Of a stretch of 64,000 nt of DNA, positions 46,734-58,685 are shown one piece after another; position 1 is the stretch's first letter; the number at the start of each line of letters is the position of its first letter. The notes under the pieces are model-generated. The model saw only the letters and a program-made list of their open reading frames with translations. It did no database searches and was not told the origin of the DNA. The stretch lies in the NCBI RefSeq assembly GCF_045037415.1, contig NZ_CP173438.1. One strand, given 5' to 3'. This stretch comes from Escherichia coli (GTDB lineage Bacteria; Pseudomonadota; Gammaproteobacteria; Enterobacterales; Enterobacteriaceae). The translations under genes and the position numbers were made by a program.

Positions 46734-48755
46734 TCACGACGCGGCAATAAACAGCTCACGCAACTGATGCAACTGGTCACGAATTTGCGCCGCTTCTTCG
46801 AACTCCAGATTCTGCGCGTGTTGCATCATCAACCCTTCCAGTTCATGGATCTTCTGCTGTAACGCTTTAGGCGACATATCCATCGGCACATTATCCGGCT
46901 CAACAATCGGGCGCGATTTTCCTCTGCCCTTCGCTTTGGTTTTGGCAATGTTCTGCCCCAGCGCCAGGATATCGACCACTTTCTTGTTCAAGCCTTGCGG
47001 CGTAATGCCGTGTTCCTCGTTGTACTTCTGCTGTTTCTCGCGGCGACGTTCGGTTTCGCCAATCGCTTTCGCCATTGATGGGGTGATCTTATCGCCGTAG
47101 AGAATCGCTTTACCGTTAACGTTACGTGCCGCACGACCAATGGTCTGGATCAACGAACGTTCGGAACGCAGGAAGCCTTCTTTGTCAGCGTCGAGGATCG
47201 CCACCAGCGAAACCTCCGGCATATCCAGACCTTCGCGCAGTAAGTTGATCCCTACCAATACGTCGAACTCACCCAGACGCAAGTCGCGGATAATCTCCAT
47301 ACGTTCGACGGTATCGATATCTGAGTGAAGATAACGCACGCGCTCACCGTGTTCTTCGAGATATTCAGTGAGATCTTCCGCCATCCGCTTGGTCAGAGTT
47401 GTAACCAGTACGCGTTCGTTAATTGCCGCTCGCTGACGAATCTCCGATAGAAGATCATCCACCTGTGTCGCTACCGGACGCACTTCAATAATCGGGTCGA
47501 GTAAGCCTGTTGGACGCACAACCTGATCCACCACATCGCCACCGGATTTTTCCAGCTCGTAATTACCCGGCGTCGCCGAAACATAGATGGTTTGCGGCGC
47601 TAATGCTTCGAACTCTTCAAATTTCAGCGGGCGGTTATCCAGCGCTGATGGCAAGCGGAAGCCGTACTCCACCAGTGTCTCTTTACGCGCCCGGTCACCG
47701 CGATACATGCCGCCAATTTGTGGAATGGTGACGTGAGATTCATCGACCACCAGCAGCCCATCAGCAGGCAGGTAATCAAACAGCGTCGGCGGTGGCTCAC
47801 CCGGTCCACGACCGGAGAGGAAGCGCGAGTAGTTCTCAATCCCCGAACAGTAGCCTAGCTCGTTCATCATCTCCAGATCAAACTGGGTACGCTGGGTCAG
47901 CCGCTGCTCTTCCAGCAGTTTGTTGTTTTCCAATAGCACTTTACGTCTGGCGGCCAGCTCTTCTTTGATCTCCTCCATCGCCTGGACGATGCGCTCGCGT
48001 GGCGTGACGTAGTGCGTTTTCGGGTAGATGGTAAAACGTGGAATAGTGGAAACAATCTGCCCGGTCAGCGGGTCAAATAACGACAATCGTTCCACCTCCT
48101 CGTCAAACAGCTCCACGCGAAGTGCAATGTCATCCGATTCTGCCGGGAAGATATCAATCACCTCGCCACGAACACGGAAAGTACCACGCTGGAATGCTTG
48201 ATCATTACGGGCATATTGCAGCTCCGCCAGTCGGCGCAGGATCGCGCGCTGATCGATAATCATACCGACCGTGAGATGGAGCATCATCTTGAGATATAAA
48301 TCAGGATCGCCCAGACCATAAATCGCGGAAACAGACGCCACCACAACCACATCACGTCGCTCCAGCATCGCTTTGGTGGCGGATAAACGCATCTGTTCGA
48401 TATGTTCGTTTACCGAGGCATCTTTCTCAATAAAGGTGTCGGAACTCGGTACATAGGCCTCCGGCTGATAGTAGTCGTAGTAGGAGACGAAATATTCCAC
48501 CGCGTTTTCTGGGAAGAATTCTTTCATTTCGCCATACAGCTGGGCCGCCAGCGTTTTGTTGGGCGCAAGTACCATGGTTGGGCGCTGAAGGTCAGCAATG
48601 ACATTGGCAATGGTGAAGGTTTTCCCGGAGCCAGTCACGCCAAGTAACGTCTGGTGCGCCAGGCCATCTTCCAGCCCCTCTTCGAGACGTCGAATCGCCT
48701 CCGGCTGATCGCCAGAAGGTTTAAAAGCGGAATTCAGTTTGAACGGTTTACTCAT
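46734..48755 (-). CDS. uvrB: excinuclease ABC subunit B
   Basis: 673 aa; Walker [10 protein letters not shown]; helicase motifs; C-terminal UVR domain. Confidence 0.96.
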
Positions 48756-48831
48756 GAGTCGCTACCTGAAGGAGTTGGGCGGGCAGGTATGTAATTTTAC
48801 TCGTCGTACTTAATTATGCCAACAAATTATA

Positions 48832-48847
48832 CTGGATAAAAAAACAG
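48832..48847. promoter_or_regulatory. LexA (SOS) box of uvrB
   Basis: CTGGATAAAAAAACAG fits CTG-N10-CAG; about 77 nt upstream of the uvrB ATG. Confidence 0.8.
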
Positions 48848-49151
48848 TTCATCACCATAATATTTCTGTTACAGCGTAAACTCCGCTGTCAATCATGAAC
48901 AAGATTTACTCTGCGGCGAGATAAAACTCCGGCCTTACCGGGTTATCCCCAAAGCAACGGCTTTTTTAACATTTGTCAAGATGATTGATGACAGTTTTAT
49001 GGCAAGAGATGCCTGTTCAGTGACTGCCATTGCAATTATCTAACCTGTTAAAAAATAAAAGATATTTCTTTGAGCTGTCTTTAACGCCAATTCGCGTGCA
49101 AGCCGCGTATTCTCTCGCTTGCCTCGTGTTTTCTAACTCTAATACACATGG

Positions 49152-49174
49152 TTATCCACAGGAATAGTGGATAA
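49152..49174. promoter_or_regulatory. pair of inverted DnaA boxes upstream of uvrB
   Basis: TTATCCACA and the reverse complement of TTATCCACT, 4 nt apart. Confidence 0.65.
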
Positions 49175-49233
49175 CTGTCTGCAGCCCCTATCCCCCGCCG
49201 CCTGGGCAATTCCCACATTCACCGCATGATGCG

Positions 49234-49325
49234 GAGGTAAAATTTTTTTCGTGATTTTTTTAGAATTTAATTGGTTAAATTGCAGTCAATCGGAGACACG
49301 ATCTCGCTCGCAATTTAACCAATTA
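49234..49325 (-). terminator. bio operon terminator (after bioD)
   Basis: 16-17 bp inverted repeat ttaattggttaaattgc / gcaatttaaccaatta followed on the minus strand by U-rich tract. Confidence 0.7.
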
Positions 49326-49333
49326 CAGGATGA

Positions 49334-50011
49334 CTACATTAAGGCAAGATTGATGTACTTTCCGGTTGCCGCATTTTCTGGATTTTCTGCAAGCCAGGGA
49401 ATTTCGCCCAGCAGCGGCGCGGGAATCATGCGGGTGAGCGTGGTCATATATTCAGCGTGACGTTTTCCCGGAGGCGTGACATCGTTCGCCACCCACCCCG
49501 CCAGAGTCAGTCCGGCGTGTAGTATTGCCTGCGCAGTCAACATCGCGTGATTAATACAGCCGAGTTTCACGCCCACAACCAGTATCACTGGCAGTTGTTC
49601 CTGTGTTACCCAATCCGCAAAAGTGAAAGTGTCAGAAAGCGGCGTAAACCAGCCGCCAGCACCTTCCACTAACACCCAGTCAGCCTGTTGTTCAAGCGCG
49701 CGTAATCCGGCGCTCATTACCAATGCTTCTATCGGCCTGCCCTCTTGCGCGCTGATGATATGCGGCGAGGTGGGTTCTGCGAAGGTGTAAGGATTTACCG
49801 TTGCGTAATCCAGCTGCAGGCTACTGTTGCGCTGTAACGCCAGCGCGTCACTATTACGTAAGCCTTTCGGGGTCTTTTCGCTGCCAGAGGCCACCGGTTT
49901 GTAACCTGCCGTCCGGTAGCCTGCTGCCTTTGCGGCTTGTAAAAGCGCGCAGCTGGCGACAGTTTTCCCCACTTCGGTATCCGTTCCGGTGACAAAATAA
50001 CATTTACTCAC
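49334..50011 (-). CDS. bioD: dethiobiotin synthetase
   Basis: 225 aa from a GTG start ([17 protein letters not shown]...); P-loop GTDTEVGKT; overlaps the bioC stop. Confidence 0.9.
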
Positions 50012-50759
50012 GAGCAATCACTCCCAAAAAAAGATGATACGTCAGAGGATATCGCCCCTGTTGTTGCGGCCAGGCCAGTTGCAATCGCTGCAACTGCGAA
50101 CGCGTTAATATTCGCGGGTCACGCCCTTCATGAAGATGCGTGGCACCGATGCCTTTCAGCGAACGCATGGCACTGAGCGCATCATCAAACCACAGCGTGA
50201 TGGGCTGAATATAATGTTGATAATGCACGGCGTTTAGCGACTGTTCGATTTCATCTGGCGGTAAAAAGCGATTAGCATGCGGACGCTCGTCCACCGCCTG
50301 CCACGCCTGATGCAGTTCGGGTAACGATCCCTGCACCAGCGTGGTAAACGCGACCACGCCTCCGGGGCGCACCACCCGATACAGCTCGCGGAGTGCCGTG
50401 GATAAATTACCGCACCACTGCACCGCGAGATTGCTCCATGCAAGATCGAACGTCGCAGTCGCTAACGGCAGGGATTCGATATCTCCCGCCAGATAATGGT
50501 CTGCGGCATCCTTCTGGCGTGCCTGAACAAGCATTGGCGGAGAGAGATCTAACGCAGTCACCTGCGCGTGACGCTCTCGCCAGCGGCGGCTCATCCAGCC
50601 TGGTCCACAACCCGCATCCAGTACGCGGGTGTATTTACGCTGTGGGAGCATTGCCAGTAAGGCGTCAGCACTCTGGCGCTGTAGATCGGCGTGTTGCTCA
50701 TAGTGTGCGGCTGCCCGTCCAAATGCCGCAGCAATGGCTTGTTTATTAACCGTTGCCAT
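50004..50759 (-). CDS. bioC: malonyl-ACP O-methyltransferase
   Basis: 251 aa from [13 protein letters not shown]...; SAM-binding VLDAGCGPG. Confidence 0.92.
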
Positions 50760-51900
50760 GCAGCACCTCCAGCAGACGGTCGATATCCTGCATTTCATGC
50801 GCTGCGGTTAGCGTTAAGCGCAGTCGCGCAGTACCAGCGGGTACGGTTGGCGGGCGAATTGCCGTGACCCAACAGCCTTGCTGGCGCAGTTTTTCTGCCA
50901 GTTGTAACGCACGGCTGTTATCACCGACGATCAATGGCTGGATGGCGCTCCATGAATCAGCAAGCGTAAACGGCAAATCCTGCACTCCGGCACGAAAACG
51001 CGTTATGAGTGCCGCCAGTTTTTCGCGCCGTGCATCCCCCTCATCACTGCGAATGACTGCCAGCGACGCACGTAATGCCTGCGCCTGAGCGGGCGGCATA
51101 CTGGTGCTGTAGATAAGATGGCGAGCGAATTGCAGCAGATAATCCGCCACCGTATTGGAGCAAAGCACCGCTGCCCCGCTGACGCCAAATCCTTTGCCAA
51201 ACGTCACCACCAGCAATTCTGGTTTTACCTTTTGCAGCCAGCAGCTGCCACGCCCCTGCTCCCCGATAACGCCCGTGCCGTGGGCGTCATCGACCATCAA
51301 CCAGCCATCGTGCTGTTGCGTTACCTGCTGGATTTCCTCCAGTGGCGCACTATCGCCGTCCATGCTGAACACGCCTTCTGTCACTACCAGTTGCTGCCCC
51401 GGACAGGGGGAAGCAAGCAGTCGCGCCAGATGAGTGACATCGTTATGAGCAAAACGGCGAAGCGGCGACGGGCTTAAACTTGCAGCCTCCAGCAATGAGG
51501 CATGGCTAAGCCGGTCGGCAACAATACGGTCCTCTTTCGCCATCATCGCGGCAATGACTGCCTGATTAGCAGCAAAACCAGAGATAAACAGCAGTGCCCG
51601 CGAATAGCCCAGCCACTCGGCCAGTTCTTCTTCCAGCGCCTGATGCGCCACGCTATAACCGCTGACGTGACCGGAGCCGCCGCTACCGATGCCAAATTGC
51701 TCCGCACCCTGCTTCCAGGCACGGATAATTTGCGGATGATGGCTTAAACCTAAATAATCGTTACTGGAAAAGTTCAGATACTGGCGATCATCCACCACCA
51801 GCCAGCGTCCGGCTCCTTGCGCCACCGGATAACGGCGACGCAGGGCATCGGCAGCACGCCGCGCATCGAGCGCCGCGTTGATTTTCTCCTGCCAGCTCAT
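50746..51900 (-). CDS. bioF: 8-amino-7-oxononanoate synthase
   Basis: 384 aa; PLP-dependent class-II aminotransferase fold; operon position. Confidence 0.94.
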
Positions 51901-52937
51901 AGTGCTGCCGCGTTGTAATATTCGTCAGTGTCCGGGGTCATCAGCGCCTGCTCCAGACGCTGCTGTTGTTCGTTATCGCCCGCCAGCACGGCAGTTTGCT
52001 GCGGATTTAGCCCCAGTTTGCGGAACAGTTGCAGGTCTTTATCTTCTTCCGGATTCGGCGTGGTCAGCAGTTTGCAACCGTAGAAAATCGAGTTTGCGCC
52101 AGCCATAAAGCACATCGCCTGAGTCTGTTCGTTCATCTGCTCGCGTCCGGCAGAAAGGCGTACGTAAGAGGTCGGCATCATGATCCGCGCAACTGCAATG
52201 GTGCGAATAAAATCAAAGGCATCGACATCATCGTTATCCGCCAGCGGCGTGCCTTTCACCTTCACCAGCATGTTGATTGGTACGCTTTCCGGCGGCGTTG
52301 GCAGGTTTGCCAGTTGCAGCAATAATCCGGCGCGATCTTTTACTGTTTCGCCTAAGCCCACAATGCCGCCTGAACAGACTTTGATCCCGGCGTCGCGCAC
52401 TTTTTCCAGCGTATCGAGGCGTTCCTGATAGGTACGCGTGGTGATGATATTGCCGTAAAACTCCGGCGAGGTGTCGAGGTTGTGGTTGTAGTAATCCAGC
52501 CCGGCATTCGCCAGGCGCTGCGCCTGAGATTCACTCAACGTGCCCAGCGTCATACACGCCTCCAGCCCCATCGCTTTTACCCCCTGCACCATTTGTTCCA
52601 GGTACGGCATATCGCGTTCGTGGGGATTCTTCCACGCCGCGCCCATACAGAAACGCGTCGATCCCGCCGCTTTCGCTTTGCGCGCCGACTCCAGCACCTG
52701 TTCAACTTCCATCAACCGCTCGGCTTCCAGCCCGGTTTTGTAGCGCGAGCTTTGCGGGCAATATTTGCAATCTTCCGGACAAGCTCCGGTCTTAATCGAC
52801 AGCAAAGTGCTGACCTGCACCTGACGAGGATCGAAATGCTGACGATGCACCTGCTGCGCTTCAAACAGCAGATCCAGCAACGGTTTTTCAAATAATTCTG
52901 TGACTTGCGACAATGTCCAGCGTGGGCGGTGAGCCAT
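51897..52937 (-). CDS. bioB: biotin synthase (radical SAM)
   Basis: 346 aa; [11 protein letters not shown] radical-SAM motif. Confidence 0.95.
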
Positions 52938-52981
52938 GGGGCTTCTCCAAAACGTGTTTTTTGTTGTTAATTCGGTGTAGA

Positions 52982-53017
52982 CTCGTAAACCTAAATCTTT
53001 TCAATTTGGTTTACAAG
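52982..53017. promoter_or_regulatory. bio operator (BirA binding site) within divergent bioA/bioB promoters
   Basis: near-palindrome cgtaaacc-taaatcttttcaatttg-gtttacaag between the divergent bioB and bioA starts. Confidence 0.8.
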
Positions 53018-53023
53018 TCGATT

Positions 53024-54313
53024 ATGACAACGGACGATCTTGCCTTTGACCAACGCCATATCTGGCACCCATACACATCCATGACCTCCCCGCTGCCGGT
53101 TTATCCGGTGGCAAGCGCCGAAGGTTGCGAGCTAATTTTGTCTGACGGCAGACGCCTGGTTGACGGTATGTCGTCCTGGTGGGCGGCGATCCACGGTTAC
53201 AATCACCCGCAGCTTAATGCGGCGATGAAGTCGCAAATTGATGCTATGTCGCATGTGATGTTTGGCGGTATCACCCATGCGCCCGCCATTGAGCTGTGCC
53301 GCAAATTGGTGGCAATGACGCCGCAACCACTGGAGTGCGTTTTTCTCGCGGACTCCGGCTCCGTAGCGGTAGAAGTGGCGATGAAAATGGCGTTGCAGTA
53401 CTGGCAGGCCAAAGGCGAAGCGCGCCAGCGTTTTCTAACCTTCCGCAATGGTTATCATGGCGATACCTTTGGCGCGATGTCGGTGTGCGATCCGGACAAC
53501 TCAATGCACAACCTGTGGAAAGGCTATCTGCCAGAAAACCTGTTTGCTCCCGCCCCGCAAAGCCGCATGGATGGCGAATGGGATGAGCGCGATATGGTGG
53601 GCTTTGCCCGCCTGATGGCGGCGCATCGTCATGAAATCGCGGCGGTGATCATTGAACCGATTGTCCAGGGCGCAGGCGGGATGCGCATGTACCATCCGGA
53701 ATGGTTAAAACGAATCCGCAAAATGTGCGATCGCGAAGGTATCTTGCTGATTGCCGACGAGATCGCCACCGGATTTGGTCGTACCGGCAAACTGTTTGCC
53801 TGTGAACATGCAGAAATCGCGCCGGATATTTTGTGTCTCGGTAAAGCCTTAACCGGCGGCACAATGACCCTTTCCGCCACGCTCACCACGCGCGAGGTTG
53901 CGGAAACCATCAGTAACGGCGAAGCCGGCTGCTTTATGCATGGGCCAACTTTTATGGGCAATCCGCTGGCCTGCGCAGCAGCAAACGCCAGCCTGGCGAT
54001 TCTCGAATCTGGCGACTGGCAGCATCAGGTGGCGGCTATTGAAGCGCAGCTACGCGAGCAACTTGCCCCCGCCTGTGACGCCGAAATGGTTGCCGATGTG
54101 CGCGTACTGGGGGCAATCGGCGTGGTCGAAACCTCTCGTCCGGTGAATATGGCAGCGCTGCAAAAATTCTTTGTCGAACAGGGTGTCTGGATCCGGCCTT
54201 TTGGCAAACTGATTTACCTGATGCCGCCCTATATTATTCTCCCGCAACAGTTGCAGCGTCTGACCGCAGCGGTTAATCGTGCGGTGCAGGATGAAACATT
54301 TTTTTGCCAATAA
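53024..54313 (+). CDS. bioA: adenosylmethionine-8-amino-7-oxononanoate aminotransferase
   Basis: 429 aa from [20 protein letters not shown]...; PLP class-III aminotransferase. Confidence 0.94.
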
Positions 54314-54371
54314 CGGGAAGTCAGCGTGAGGGTTTCTGGCTACACTTTCTGCAAACAAGAAAGGAGGGCTC

Positions 54372-54848
54372 ATGAAACTCATCAGTAATGATTTACGCGA
54401 TGGCGATAAGCTGCCGCATCGTCATGTCTTTAACGGCATGGGTTACGATGGCGATAATATTTCACCGCATCTGGCGTGGGATGATGTTCCTGTGGGAACG
54501 AAAAGTTTTGTTGTCACCTGCTACGACCCGGATGCGCCAACTGGCTCCGGCTGGTGGCACTGGGTAGTTGTTAATTTACCCGCGGATACCCGCGTATTAC
54601 CGCAAGGGTTTGGATCTGGTCTGGTAGCAATGCCAGACGGCGTTTTGCAGACGCGTACCGACTTTGGTAAAACCGGATACGATGGCGCAGCGCCGCCGAA
54701 AGGCGAAACCCATCGCTACATTTTTACCGTTCACGCGCTGGATGTAGAACGTATTGATGTCGATGAAGGTGCCAGCGGCGCGATGGTCGGGTTTAACGTT
54801 CATTTTCACTCTCTGGCGAGTGCCTCGATTACTGCGATGTTTAGTTAA
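54372..54848 (+). CDS. ybhB: PEBP/YbhB-family (kinase-inhibitor-like) protein
   Basis: 158 aa; PEBP family sequence. Confidence 0.9.
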   Translation: MKLISNDLRDGDKLPHRHVFNGMGYDGDNISPHLAWDDVPVGTKSFVVTCYDPDAPTGSGWWHWVVVNLPADTRVLPQGFGSGLVAMPDGVLQTRTDFGKTGYDGAAPPKGETHRYIFTVHALDVERIDVDEGASGAMVGFNVHFHSLASASITAMFS

Positions 54849-54999
54849 TCACTCTGCCAGATGGCGCAATGCCATCTGGTATCACTTAAAGGTATTAAAA
54901 ACAACTTTTTGTCTTTTTACCTTCCCGTTTCGCTCAAGTTAGTATAAAAAAGCAGGCTTCAACGGATTCATTTTTCTATTTCATAGCCCGGAGCAACCT

Positions 55000-56283
55000 G
55001 TGAACACATTTTCAGTTTCCCGTCTGGCGCTGGCATTGGCTTTTGGCGTGACGCTGACCGCCTGTAGCTCAACACCGCCCGATCAACGTCCTTCTGATCA
55101 AACCGCGCCTGGTACCTCTTCTCGCCCGATTCTGTCGGCAAAAGAAGCGCAGAATTTCGATGCTCAACACTATTTTGCATCCCTGACACCAGGTGCGGCA
55201 GCGTGGAATCCTTCCCCGATTACCCTGCCTGCGCAACCTGACTTTGTTGTCGGCCCGGCGGGTACTCAAGGTGTAACGCATACCACGATTCAGGCGGCGG
55301 TAGATGCGGCAATTATCAAGCGTACCAACAAGCGCCAGTATATTGCCGTGATGCCTGGTGAGTATCAGGGAACGGTGTATGTCCCTGCCGCTCCGGGTGG
55401 AATTACTCTGTACGGTACAGGTGAAAAACCGATTGATGTGAAGATTGGGCTTTCCCTTGATGGTGGCATGAGCCCTGCCGACTGGCGTCACGACGTCAAC
55501 CCGCGCGGCAAATATATGCCAGGTAAACCGGCGTGGTATATGTACGATAGCTGCCAGAGTAAACGCAGCGACAGTATCGGTGTTCTCTGCTCTGCGGTCT
55601 TCTGGTCACAAAACAATGGCCTGCAACTGCAAAACCTGACCATCGAAAACACGCTGGGCGATAGCGTAGATGCGGGTAACCATCCGGCGGTGGCACTGCG
55701 TACTGATGGCGACAAAGTGCAGATCAATAACGTCAACATTCTCGGTCGTCAGAACACCTTCTTTGTCACCAACAGCGGTGTGCAGAACCGTCTGGAAACG
55801 AATCGCCAGCCGCGTACGCTGGTGACCAACAGCTATATTGAAGGGGATGTGGATATCGTTTCTGGTCGCGGCGCAGTGGTGTTCGATAACACCGAATTCC
55901 GCGTGGTGAACTCCCGTACCCAGCAAGAAGCGTATGTGTTTGCACCGGCTACGCTGTCCAACATTTACTACGGTTTCCTCGCCGTAAACAGCCGTTTCAA
56001 TGCTTCCGGTGATGGCGTGGCGCAACTGGGCCGCTCGCTGGATGTTGATGCCAATACCAACGGTCAGGTAGTGATCCGTGATAGCGCCATCAACGAAGGT
56101 TTTAACACAGCCAAACCGTGGGCTGATGCGGTGATCTCTAATCGCCCGTTTGCGGGTAACACCGGCAGCGTTGATGATAACGACGAAGTACAACGCAATC
56201 TGAATGACACTAACTACAACCGCATGTGGGAATACAATAACCGCGGCGTGGGTAGCAAAGTGGTTGCAGAGGCGAAGAAGTAG
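55000..56283 (+). CDS. ybhC: outer-membrane lipoprotein, pectinesterase-like (carboxylesterase)
   Basis: 427 aa; GTG start; lipoprotein signal with lipobox LTAC; parallel beta-helix-like repeats. Confidence 0.9.
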   Translation: MNTFSVSRLALALAFGVTLTACSSTPPDQRPSDQTAPGTSSRPILSAKEAQNFDAQHYFASLTPGAAAWNPSPITLPAQPDFVVGPAGTQGVTHTTIQAAVDAAIIKRTNKRQYIAVMPGEYQGTVYVPAAPGGITLYGTGEKPIDVKIGLSLDGGMSPADWRHDVNPRGKYMPGKPAWYMYDSCQSKRSDSIGVLCSAVFWSQNNGLQLQNLTIENTLGDSVDAGNHPAVALRTDGDKVQINNVNILGRQNTFFVTNSGVQNRLETNRQPRTLVTNSYIEGDVDIVSGRGAVVFDNTEFRVVNSRTQQEAYVFAPATLSNIYYGFLAVNSRFNASGDGVAQLGRSLDVDANTNGQVVIRDSAINEGFNTAKPWADAVISNRPFAGNTGSVDDNDEVQRNLNDTNYNRMWEYNNRGVGSKVVAEAKK

Positions 56284-56298
56284 GAGCTGTTAACTATG

Positions 56299-56414
<116 letters not shown>

Positions 56415-56423
56415 TGGCGCTTT

Positions 56424-58685
56424 TTACATCTGACGGTTTTTATTGAAGTTAATCAAACTACCCGCCTTGATAATCTCGCGTTCTTCGGCAGTCAGACTTT
56501 CCATATAGAGCGTGATTTCCGTTACCGGTGCATCTTCATGGATCACATAACCTTTAAACGTCGTTCCAGGATTATCCAGCGCCGCTTTAATGCCAGGGAT
56601 GTAAATGTAATCCCCCACTTCAAAGGTTGGCGCTTCCGCCATCTGCAGCGGTAACATCCCCCAGTTGATGACGTTAGAACGATAGCGTTTAGTCGCGTAC
56701 TCCTCGGCAATATTCGCCAGACCGCCAATCACACGCTGACAACTCGCCGCCTGTTCACGCGCAGAACCATCGCCTGGTTTCACCGCATAGACCATGCTGC
56801 CAATTTCAGTTTGCAGCGGATCAACATGTTCCTGACCAGCAATCTGCTTAATGCGCGCAAACACCTCTGCCATCTCGCTGACATTCCCCGCCAGACGCTG
56901 ATTTTCCAGCTCAGCAGTCGCTTTACTTCTGCCAACATAACCTGGATCGCGGCGTGACAGGGTAAACTCCGCCAGACCAATCGGATTTGAACGATAAGAA
57001 GAGGTTTCACCGGAAGGAATCAGTTCGTCGGTGGTGGTCACTTCGTCGAGGATCTTCGAGCACACTTTGAGGACGATATTGTCAGTCAGCGCACCCAATT
57101 CCGGCCAGTCTTTAATGTTCGGTCCGTAAATCAGCGGTTGCTGGGTCGCCCCTTTCACAAAGCCTTGATAGACGCGATTTTTATACGGCGTTACATCGAA
57201 GGCGTACTCCGGCACGTTGTCCCAGCAATCGAGTTCGCTGGCAGAGGTTAAATAGCCACCGTTTGCCGCAGTCGCAGCGATAGAACGAGCGTCCATCAAC
57301 GCCACCGCTGACATCTGCCCATTAGCTGGCTTAGAGCCTTCGCGGTTCGGGAAGTTACGCGTGGTGTGGCGAATACTCAAACCGTTGTTGATTGGCGTAT
57401 CGCCCGCGCCAAAGCATGGGCCGCAGAACGCGGTTCTGATGATTGCGCCTGCGCCAATCAAATCTGCGACCACACCTTTTTTGGCGAGATCCATAAACAC
57501 CGGCTGTGATGACGGGTAAACCGCTAACGAGAAGGTGTCATTGCCGCAGGATTGACCGCGCAGCGCATTCGCCGCCGCGATGACGTTTTCATAGTTACCG
57601 CCAGAACAGCCCGCGATAATCCCCTGCTGCACTTTCAGGCGACCATTTTCCACTTTATCCAGCAGCGAGAGTTTGGCTTTACCGTGCGCCACGCGTTCGG
57701 ACTCAATTTCAATCTCACGCAGAATGTCGGTCAGGTTCTGGTTCAGCGTGTCGATTTCATACACGTTGCTCGGGTGGAATGGCAGCGCAATCATTGGTTT
57801 GATGGCGCTTAAATCAACGCTGATGCAGCCATCGTAGTACGCCATTGGTTGAGGGTTAAGTTGGCAGTAATCCTGGCCGCGACCGTGCAGCGCCAGCCAG
57901 TTATGGACTTCTTCATCGGTTTGCCAGACAGAACTTAAACAGGTCGTTTCAGTGGTCATCACGTCAACGCTGTTACGGAAATCGGTAGAGAGCGCTGCAA
58001 CACCGGGACCTACGAACTCCATCACTTTGTTTTTGACGTAACCGTTTTTGAACACGGCACCGATGATAGCCAGCGCCACATCCTGCGGCCCCACATACGG
58101 CGCAGGTTTTCCGGTCAGATGCACCGCAACCACGCCCGGATAGTCGATATCCCAGGTGTCATTAAGCAGTTGTTTTACCAGCTCGCCGCCGCCCTCACCG
58201 ACTGCCATTGTCCCTAATGCGCCGTAACGGGTGTGGCTGTCTGATCCGAGGATCATTTTGCCGCCGCCAGCCATCATTTCACGCATATATTGATGGATGA
58301 CCGCAATATGCGGTGGCACAAAAATACCGCCATAACGCTGGGCCGCCGATAAACCAAAAACATGGTCATCACCGTTAATGGTGCCGCCGACGGCGCAGAG
58401 TGAGTTATGGCAGTTGGTCAGCACATACGGCAGCGGGAAACGTTCCATACCGGACGCTTTAGCGGTCTGTACAATACCAACAAAGGTAATATCGTGAGAG
58501 GCTAATGAATCAAACTTAATTTTAAGTTTATCCATATTTCCGGACGTATTATGAGAAGAGAGAATAGACCAGGCAATAGTGCCTTTTTTGGCTTCTTCTT
58601 TTTTAATTTCGCCGGTGAAATGTTCTTCGGCAATTATTTCGTTATTACTGGCGAGAAACACGCCTTTTTCAGATAACTTGATCAT
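56424..58685 (-). CDS. ybhJ: aconitase-family protein (putative hydratase/dehydratase)
   Basis: 753 aa from [10 protein letters not shown]...; aconitase-family catalytic and swivel-domain similarity. Confidence 0.88.

Follow-up and report, generated by a model that had tools for sequence, protein, structure and literature searches.

The biotin operator is a well-known regulatory site of Escherichia coli, and the locus described here raises the question of what a single base in its outer arm, at which the present strain departs from K-12, represents. The window analysed, a stretch of 64,000 nucleotides of E. coli DNA, carries bioB (biotin synthase, the first gene of bioBFCD; an open reading frame at 51,897-52,937, minus strand, annotated in 100%-identical genomes) and bioA (an open reading frame at 53,024-54,313, plus strand, annotated in genomes identical to the window) in divergent orientation. 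The genes bioF, bioC and bioD, which form the remainder of the operon under the bioB promoter PB and the operator, occupy 49,334-51,900 on the minus strand according to the annotation of strain JJ1887, which is 100% identical over window positions 48,000-58,000. The intergenic region between bioB and bioA measures 86 bp (52,938-53,023) and contains a 40-bp imperfect palindrome, the BirA operator bioO, at 52,980-53,019, reading GACTCGTAAACCTAAATCTTTTCAATTTGGTTTACAAGTC. A repeat finder delimits two arms of 15 nt each, 87% complementary and separated by 10 nt: the bioB-proximal left arm GACTCGTAAACCTAA (52,980-52,994), which holds the variable outer positions 52,981-52,984, and the bioA-proximal right arm TTTGGTTTACAAGTC (53,005-53,019), which also adjoins the bioA start codon.

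The core pattern GTAAACC-N16-GGTTTAC is found once in the 64-kb window, where 0.14 occurrences are expected even with two mismatches allowed; given this and its position exactly between bioB and bioA, the site is not a chance match. The repeat matches the BirA consensus, and a first-pass annotation made from the letters of the window had already placed a bio operator at 52,982-53,017, an assignment that the inverted repeat, the flanking genes and an identity of 39/40 bases with K-12 bioO bear out. The divergent bioA/bioBFCD intergenic setting, the 40-bp repeat with its GTAAACC and GGTTTAC cores and the overlap with promoters and transcription starts are all present; full identity with the K-12 reference operator is not, owing to a T to C difference at 52,984. 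Identity with K-12 defines the K-12 allele and not the bioO element, and the element at 52,980-53,019 is bioO, the textbook biotin operator of E. coli, already known.

Alignment with the K-12 derivative BW25113/JW5503 revealed two differences in the 201 bp compared, at 52,984 (C in the window, T in K-12) and at 53,092. The former is the sole difference between window and K-12 in the whole bioB-bioA intergenic region, while the latter falls inside bioA. The first-pass annotation had read ctCgtaaacc at 52,982-52,991 and ggtttacaag at 53,008-53,017, and had suggested cttgtaaacc as the K-12 left arm; the letters are correct, and the suggestion agrees with the alignment. Identity with the K-12 operator, which it had named as the outcome that would speak against it, was not seen in the alignment that it proposed as a check. 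Its description of the dyad as imperfect at the outer positions was right in so far as C52984 is unpaired, but the mispartner is A53015 and not the G53017 that it had capitalised, which pairs normally with C52982. The dyad thus read has two mispairs, C52984 against A53015 and T52992 against T53007, the second of which is also present in K-12, and the arms pair at 13/15 positions with C at 52,984 (window) and at 14/15 with T (K-12).

The place of this base relative to the two promoters was derived from experimental K-12 start sites, published as 51-mers, each made up of the start base and the 50 nt preceding it (Kim et al. 2012 Table S1, PMC3415461): the bioA start lies at NC_000913.2 808513 on the minus strand, with a 33-nt leader and a 51-mer ending ...GGTGTAGACTTGTAAACC, and the bioB start at NC_000913.2 808524 on the plus strand, with a 43-nt leader and the 51-mer TTGTCATAATCGACTTGTAAACCAAATTGAAAAGATTTAGGTTTACAAGTC. 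These starts are from K-12 only, and their transfer to the window, which rests on identity of the flanking sequence, puts the bioB start at 52,980 (minus strand) and the bioA start at 52,991 (plus strand; 51-mer ending ...GTAGACTTGTAAACC). For PB, the K-12 bioB-start 51-mer ending ...GATTTAGGTTTACAAGTC gives a -10 hexamer TAGGTT at 52,988-52,993 on the minus strand with a discriminator of 7 nt, and a -35 hexamer TTGTAA, placed relative to the same start, at 53,011-53,016 on the minus strand, 17 nt from the -10 hexamer. For the bioA promoter PA, a -10 hexamer TAGACT occupies 52,978-52,983 on the plus strand, ending 8 nt upstream of the bioA start and likewise leaving a discriminator of 7 nt; no convincing -35 hexamer was found for PA. 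The pattern T-A-n-n-n-T at the PA -10 element is kept in 16/17 aligned sequences, as TAGACT, TAAACT, TATACT, TAGGAT or TATGAT, the exception being Rahnella bruchi with TAGTCC, whose sixth position lacks T.

The two promoters interdigitate, each start adjoining the -10 element of the other promoter; both starts fall within the left arm of bioO, and the -35 and -10 hexamers of PB lie within the operator. The bio promoters have been described as face-to-face (PMC5640590), and bioO is stated to overlap the -35 and -10 elements of both (PMC5640590; PMC4462617). Position 52,984 corresponds to PB -4 and PA -7, in the 10-bp untranscribed gap between the starts. It is outside every hexamer and absent from both mRNAs, and would therefore act only via BirA affinity or via the open-complex behaviour of RNA polymerase. 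A change in a bioA -35 hexamer (TTGTAA to TCGTAA), guessed from the symmetry of the palindrome, was ruled out, since the K-12 starts put the base at PA -7. An alternative PA -10 frame, AGACT(T/C) at -12 to -7 with TG before it, in which 52,984 would be the critical last T, was also rejected, as its key second position is G and it would end in C in most species; the TAGACT frame is better kept. A consensus promoter scan of both alleles reported neither bio promoter, both being too far from consensus, and is uninformative on the allele difference.

The dyad partner of the polymorphic base, 53,015 by dyad geometry, is A on the plus strand and on the minus strand forms the second T of the PB -35 hexamer TTGTAA. 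This position is A in 14/15 of the outgroup species listed, and the outer AAGTC of the right arm is the same in 14/15 of them; because 53,015 belongs to the PB -35 hexamer, its conservation says little about what BirA needs. This is a confounding factor for anyone who models BirA specificity from conservation or works with a bioO other than that of K-12.

The distribution of the alleles was determined with a 57-mer centred on 52,984, searched in 5,426 complete E. coli genomes, with counts given per 5,419; searches with 40-mers overcount, since an alignment that loses the variable left edge to trimming still scores 100%. The C allele of the window was found exactly in 1,934 genomes (36%) and the T allele of K-12 in 3,246 (60%). 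A third allele, GAATTG (C to A at 52,982, with T at 52,984), was exact in 177 genomes out of 5,391 that gave a match, and about 62 genomes, by subtraction, have other alleles. Carriers of C include the type strain DSM 30083, Nissle 1917 and E2348/69, and carriers of T include K-12, B/BL21, HS and typical O157:H7. Many genomes match the window with 100% identity over 10 kb (48,000-58,000), among them one labelled O25b:H4, JJ1887, uk_P46212 and 81009, which we take to be ST131 strains. On the 57-mer counts and this identity, the C is neither an error nor a private mutation. The possible strain SNP of the first-pass annotation was thus not borne out: C at 52,984 is not a private strain SNP but occurs in about 36% of complete E. 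coli genomes and in outgroups, and is ancestral in the local tree described below. It is a common natural allele, already contained in thousands of public genomes, and of little import for biology at large.

Two features of the surroundings of the locus were recorded along with these searches. The 10-kb query matched a median of 22 places in each genome, which implies some short repeated element within 48,000-58,000. Just downstream of bioA, Nissle 1917 (L126:3469-4057) and E2348/69 (L130:3445-4040) carry a gene of the InsQ/TnpB family, where the window, like most other strains, has ybhB.

Variation in the control region as a whole is small. Among 20 diverse E. coli strains, in which those variant at 52,981 and 52,982 were picked because they are variant, the 86-bp intergenic region varies only at 52,981, 52,982 and 52,984, while in the same strains 87 of the 346 third codon positions of bioB and 92 of the 429 of bioA are segregating (21-25%). 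The right arm of bioO shows no variant in these strains, and all operator variation found in E. coli falls within the outermost 4 bp of the left arm, with none in the right. At this variable outer edge, bioO shares bases with the PA -10 hexamer and with the PB start. Position 52,984 is the only common polymorphism in the otherwise almost invariant control region, a pattern that fits a weakly constrained position and also fits a selected regulatory change. Over the 64 of 86 bp compared (52,960-53,023) the intergenic region is identical to that of E. albertii, and E. coli strains diverge locally by up to 3-4%.

The rarer alleles at the operator edge deserve a separate description. The third allele, GAATTGTAAACC in E. 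coli O111:NM 2010C-3053 (L127:1972-2028; window-equivalent 52,982), turns the PA -10 hexamer from TAGACT into TAGAAT, with 5/6 matches to TATAAT, and could, judged on this likeness, be a natural promoter-up change for bioA; the listed carriers of TAGAAT with a serogroup label are O26, O111 and O103. Two rare variants at the window-equivalent positions 52,981-52,982 read GATTCG and GGCTTG, in strains LCP30S3_I5 (L128) and YDMW_2 (L129).

The age of the alleles was assessed by comparison with other Enterobacterales. A collection with one genome per species, scanned for GTAAACC-N16-GGTTTAC, yielded at least 120 loci, with Salmonella, Klebsiella and E. fergusonii not among them; at least 15 loci from outside E. 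coli, with a BioB and/or BioA coding sequence adjoining the site, were oriented with bioB on the left and used as outgroups. The base preceding GTAAACC in the bioB-proximal arm is C in 12/15 of the species listed, comprising E. albertii, four Citrobacter, Superficieibacter, Pluralibacter, Pseudescherichia, Lelliottia, Enterobacter sp. Ag1, one metagenome bin and Rahnella, and T in the remaining three, all of them Enterobacter-like. Most of the listed enterobacterial operators thus have C at this position, with the rest of the operator almost unchanged. Since E. albertii and most of the enterobacterial species sampled carry C, C is taken to be the ancestral base.

In a neighbour-joining tree of 20 E. 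coli genomes, built on 3.3 kb with Citrobacter and E. albertii as the root, the C strains come out basal; a single derived cluster holds most T strains and also encloses two C strains. Positions 52,984 and 53,092 (G in the window, T in K-12), which are 108 bp apart, are mostly linked, and yet all four allele combinations occur: PV15-279 has T with G, and TR01 and UTAK-14 have C with T. The four combinations indicate recombination within the bio control region, which blurs the reading of T as having a single origin. TR01 and PV15-279, both labelled O157:H7, carry different alleles at 52,984, and recent recurrent mutation was suspected from this pair; the idea was dropped, since their bio regions differ at 58 of 4,043 sites and are different haplotypes, a divergence that suggests an imported segment or an atypical lineage. 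The simplest reading of the outgroups and the tree would be that C is ancestral, that T arose within E. coli, and that recombination has since moved T about. On the same comparisons, the more symmetric operator of K-12 appears to be the derived form and the asymmetric one the norm of the family, not an operator lesion; as K-12 carries the derived base, a difference from K-12 is not to be read as a mutant.

Once charged with biotinoyl-5'-AMP, BirA forms a dimer whose cooperative binding to the two half-sites blocks both promoters, and derepression follows when biotin shortage or an excess of unbiotinylated AccB uses up the adenylate and frees bioO (PMC5640590; PMC4462617). Cooperative BirA binding and biotin-dependent repression are known for the K-12 allele (PMC5640590). 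The BirA consensus of Proteobacteria (Rodionov et al. 2002, as quoted in PMC545781) is TTGTAAACC-N14/15-GGTTTACAA, and some predicted BirA sites of other bacteria, such as acGTcAACC and GGTTgACgA, have C at the position that corresponds to 52,984 (PMC545781). Searches of the literature found no BirA binding or expression measurements on the C allele, and the open-text literature yielded neither base-level BirA contacts nor the operator mutants of 1981 in bioO. A sequence search of the PDB, the result table of which lists protein names only, returned no entry named as a BirA-DNA complex. To our knowledge, all quantitative biochemistry of BirA and bioO has been done on the K-12 operator.

We consider it very probable that the window carries the ancestral C at 52,984 in a functional bioO, that the polymorphism is nearly neutral, and that the T of K-12 is derived. 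In the mechanism proposed, bioO would serve as a single operator at which a BirA-biotinoyl-AMP dimer represses the interdigitated divergent promoters of bioA and bioBFCD; C52984, which occupies the outermost consensus position of the half-site next to bioB, would be the base ancestral among enterobacteria, and the T found in K-12 and in about 60% of sequenced E. coli a derived base that makes the dyad more symmetric. Because whole genera keep C, the C operator is most likely fully functional, with BirA tolerance of C deduced from conservation and any effect of the polymorphism at most small. The frequency of C within E. coli and its spread among the outgroups argue against a crippling operator-constitutive (Oc) change in bioO.

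Among the alternatives, the change from C to T may have been selected as a regulatory change altering the biotin set-point or the ratio of bioA to bioBFCD. The T allele marks most lineages of the K-12, HS, O157 and O111 type, and B2 lineages such as ST131, Nissle 1917 and E2348/69 would then regulate biotin synthesis measurably differently from K-12; we hold this to be unlikely. A more specific proposal, which we regard as improbable, is that the alleles differ through BirA, the derived T completing TTGTAAACC in the left half-site and tightening cooperative binding. Position 52,984 does belong to the published BirA consensus (PMC545781), T raises the complementarity of the arms by one pair and has spread to the majority of E. 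coli genomes, and the T/C difference is the only common change in a control region that is otherwise invariant. However, C is kept in most of the other species listed, with operators that are otherwise near-identical; T and C have toggled more than once, as T occurs in three Enterobacter species and C strains branch within the T cluster; and the invariance of 53,015 is explained by the PB -35 hexamer and not by BirA. If the proposal were true, K-12-like lineages would repress biotin synthesis at lower biotin than lineages with C such as ST131 and other B2 strains, and a difference in repression between the alleles would offer a simple example of natural set-point tuning by a classic repressor.

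It is very unlikely, in our view, that the base matters through RNA polymerase, as a discriminator base in PB (A to G at -4) and in PA (T to C at -7), where it could alter how stable the open complex is, which start site is chosen or how bioA and bioBFCD expression are balanced. Its position relative to the experimental starts, with PA -7 directly after TAGACT, speaks for such an effect, and variation at 52,981-52,982 also alters the PA -10 element (TAGAAT in 177 genomes), so that this stretch tolerates natural variation; against it, the SNP is outside every hexamer, and at precisely these positions a discriminator base usually has little effect. A sequencing or assembly error in the window, for which nothing speaks beyond the difference being a single base, is hardly credible and is refuted by the same 57-mer in 1,934 independent complete genomes and by the 100% identity of the surrounding 10 kb to many others.

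The reading of an ancestral and functional C operator agrees with the comparison to known systems. The bioO of E. albertii has C at the position and shows no difference from the window in a 70-bp comparison that takes in most of the intergenic region together with the beginning of bioA; the Citrobacter operators differ from the window in one spacer base and also have C. Against the BirA consensus of Proteobacteria, the right half-site of the window is a full match, whereas the left matches at 8/9 positions, with C at consensus position 2, and 16 nt separate the two 9-mers as opposed to N14/15. The 40-bp biotin operator of K-12, reportedly described by Otsuka and Abelson in 1978, is said to be the one on which the Beckett and Cronan laboratories carried out their BirA binding studies. 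The operator of the window shares with it the locus, the length, the GTAAACC and GGTTTAC cores, the 16-bp spacer, the flanking promoters and genes, and 39/40 bases; it differs in operator base 5, which is C and not T, giving the left arm GACTCGTAAACC and two mispairs compared with one in K-12.
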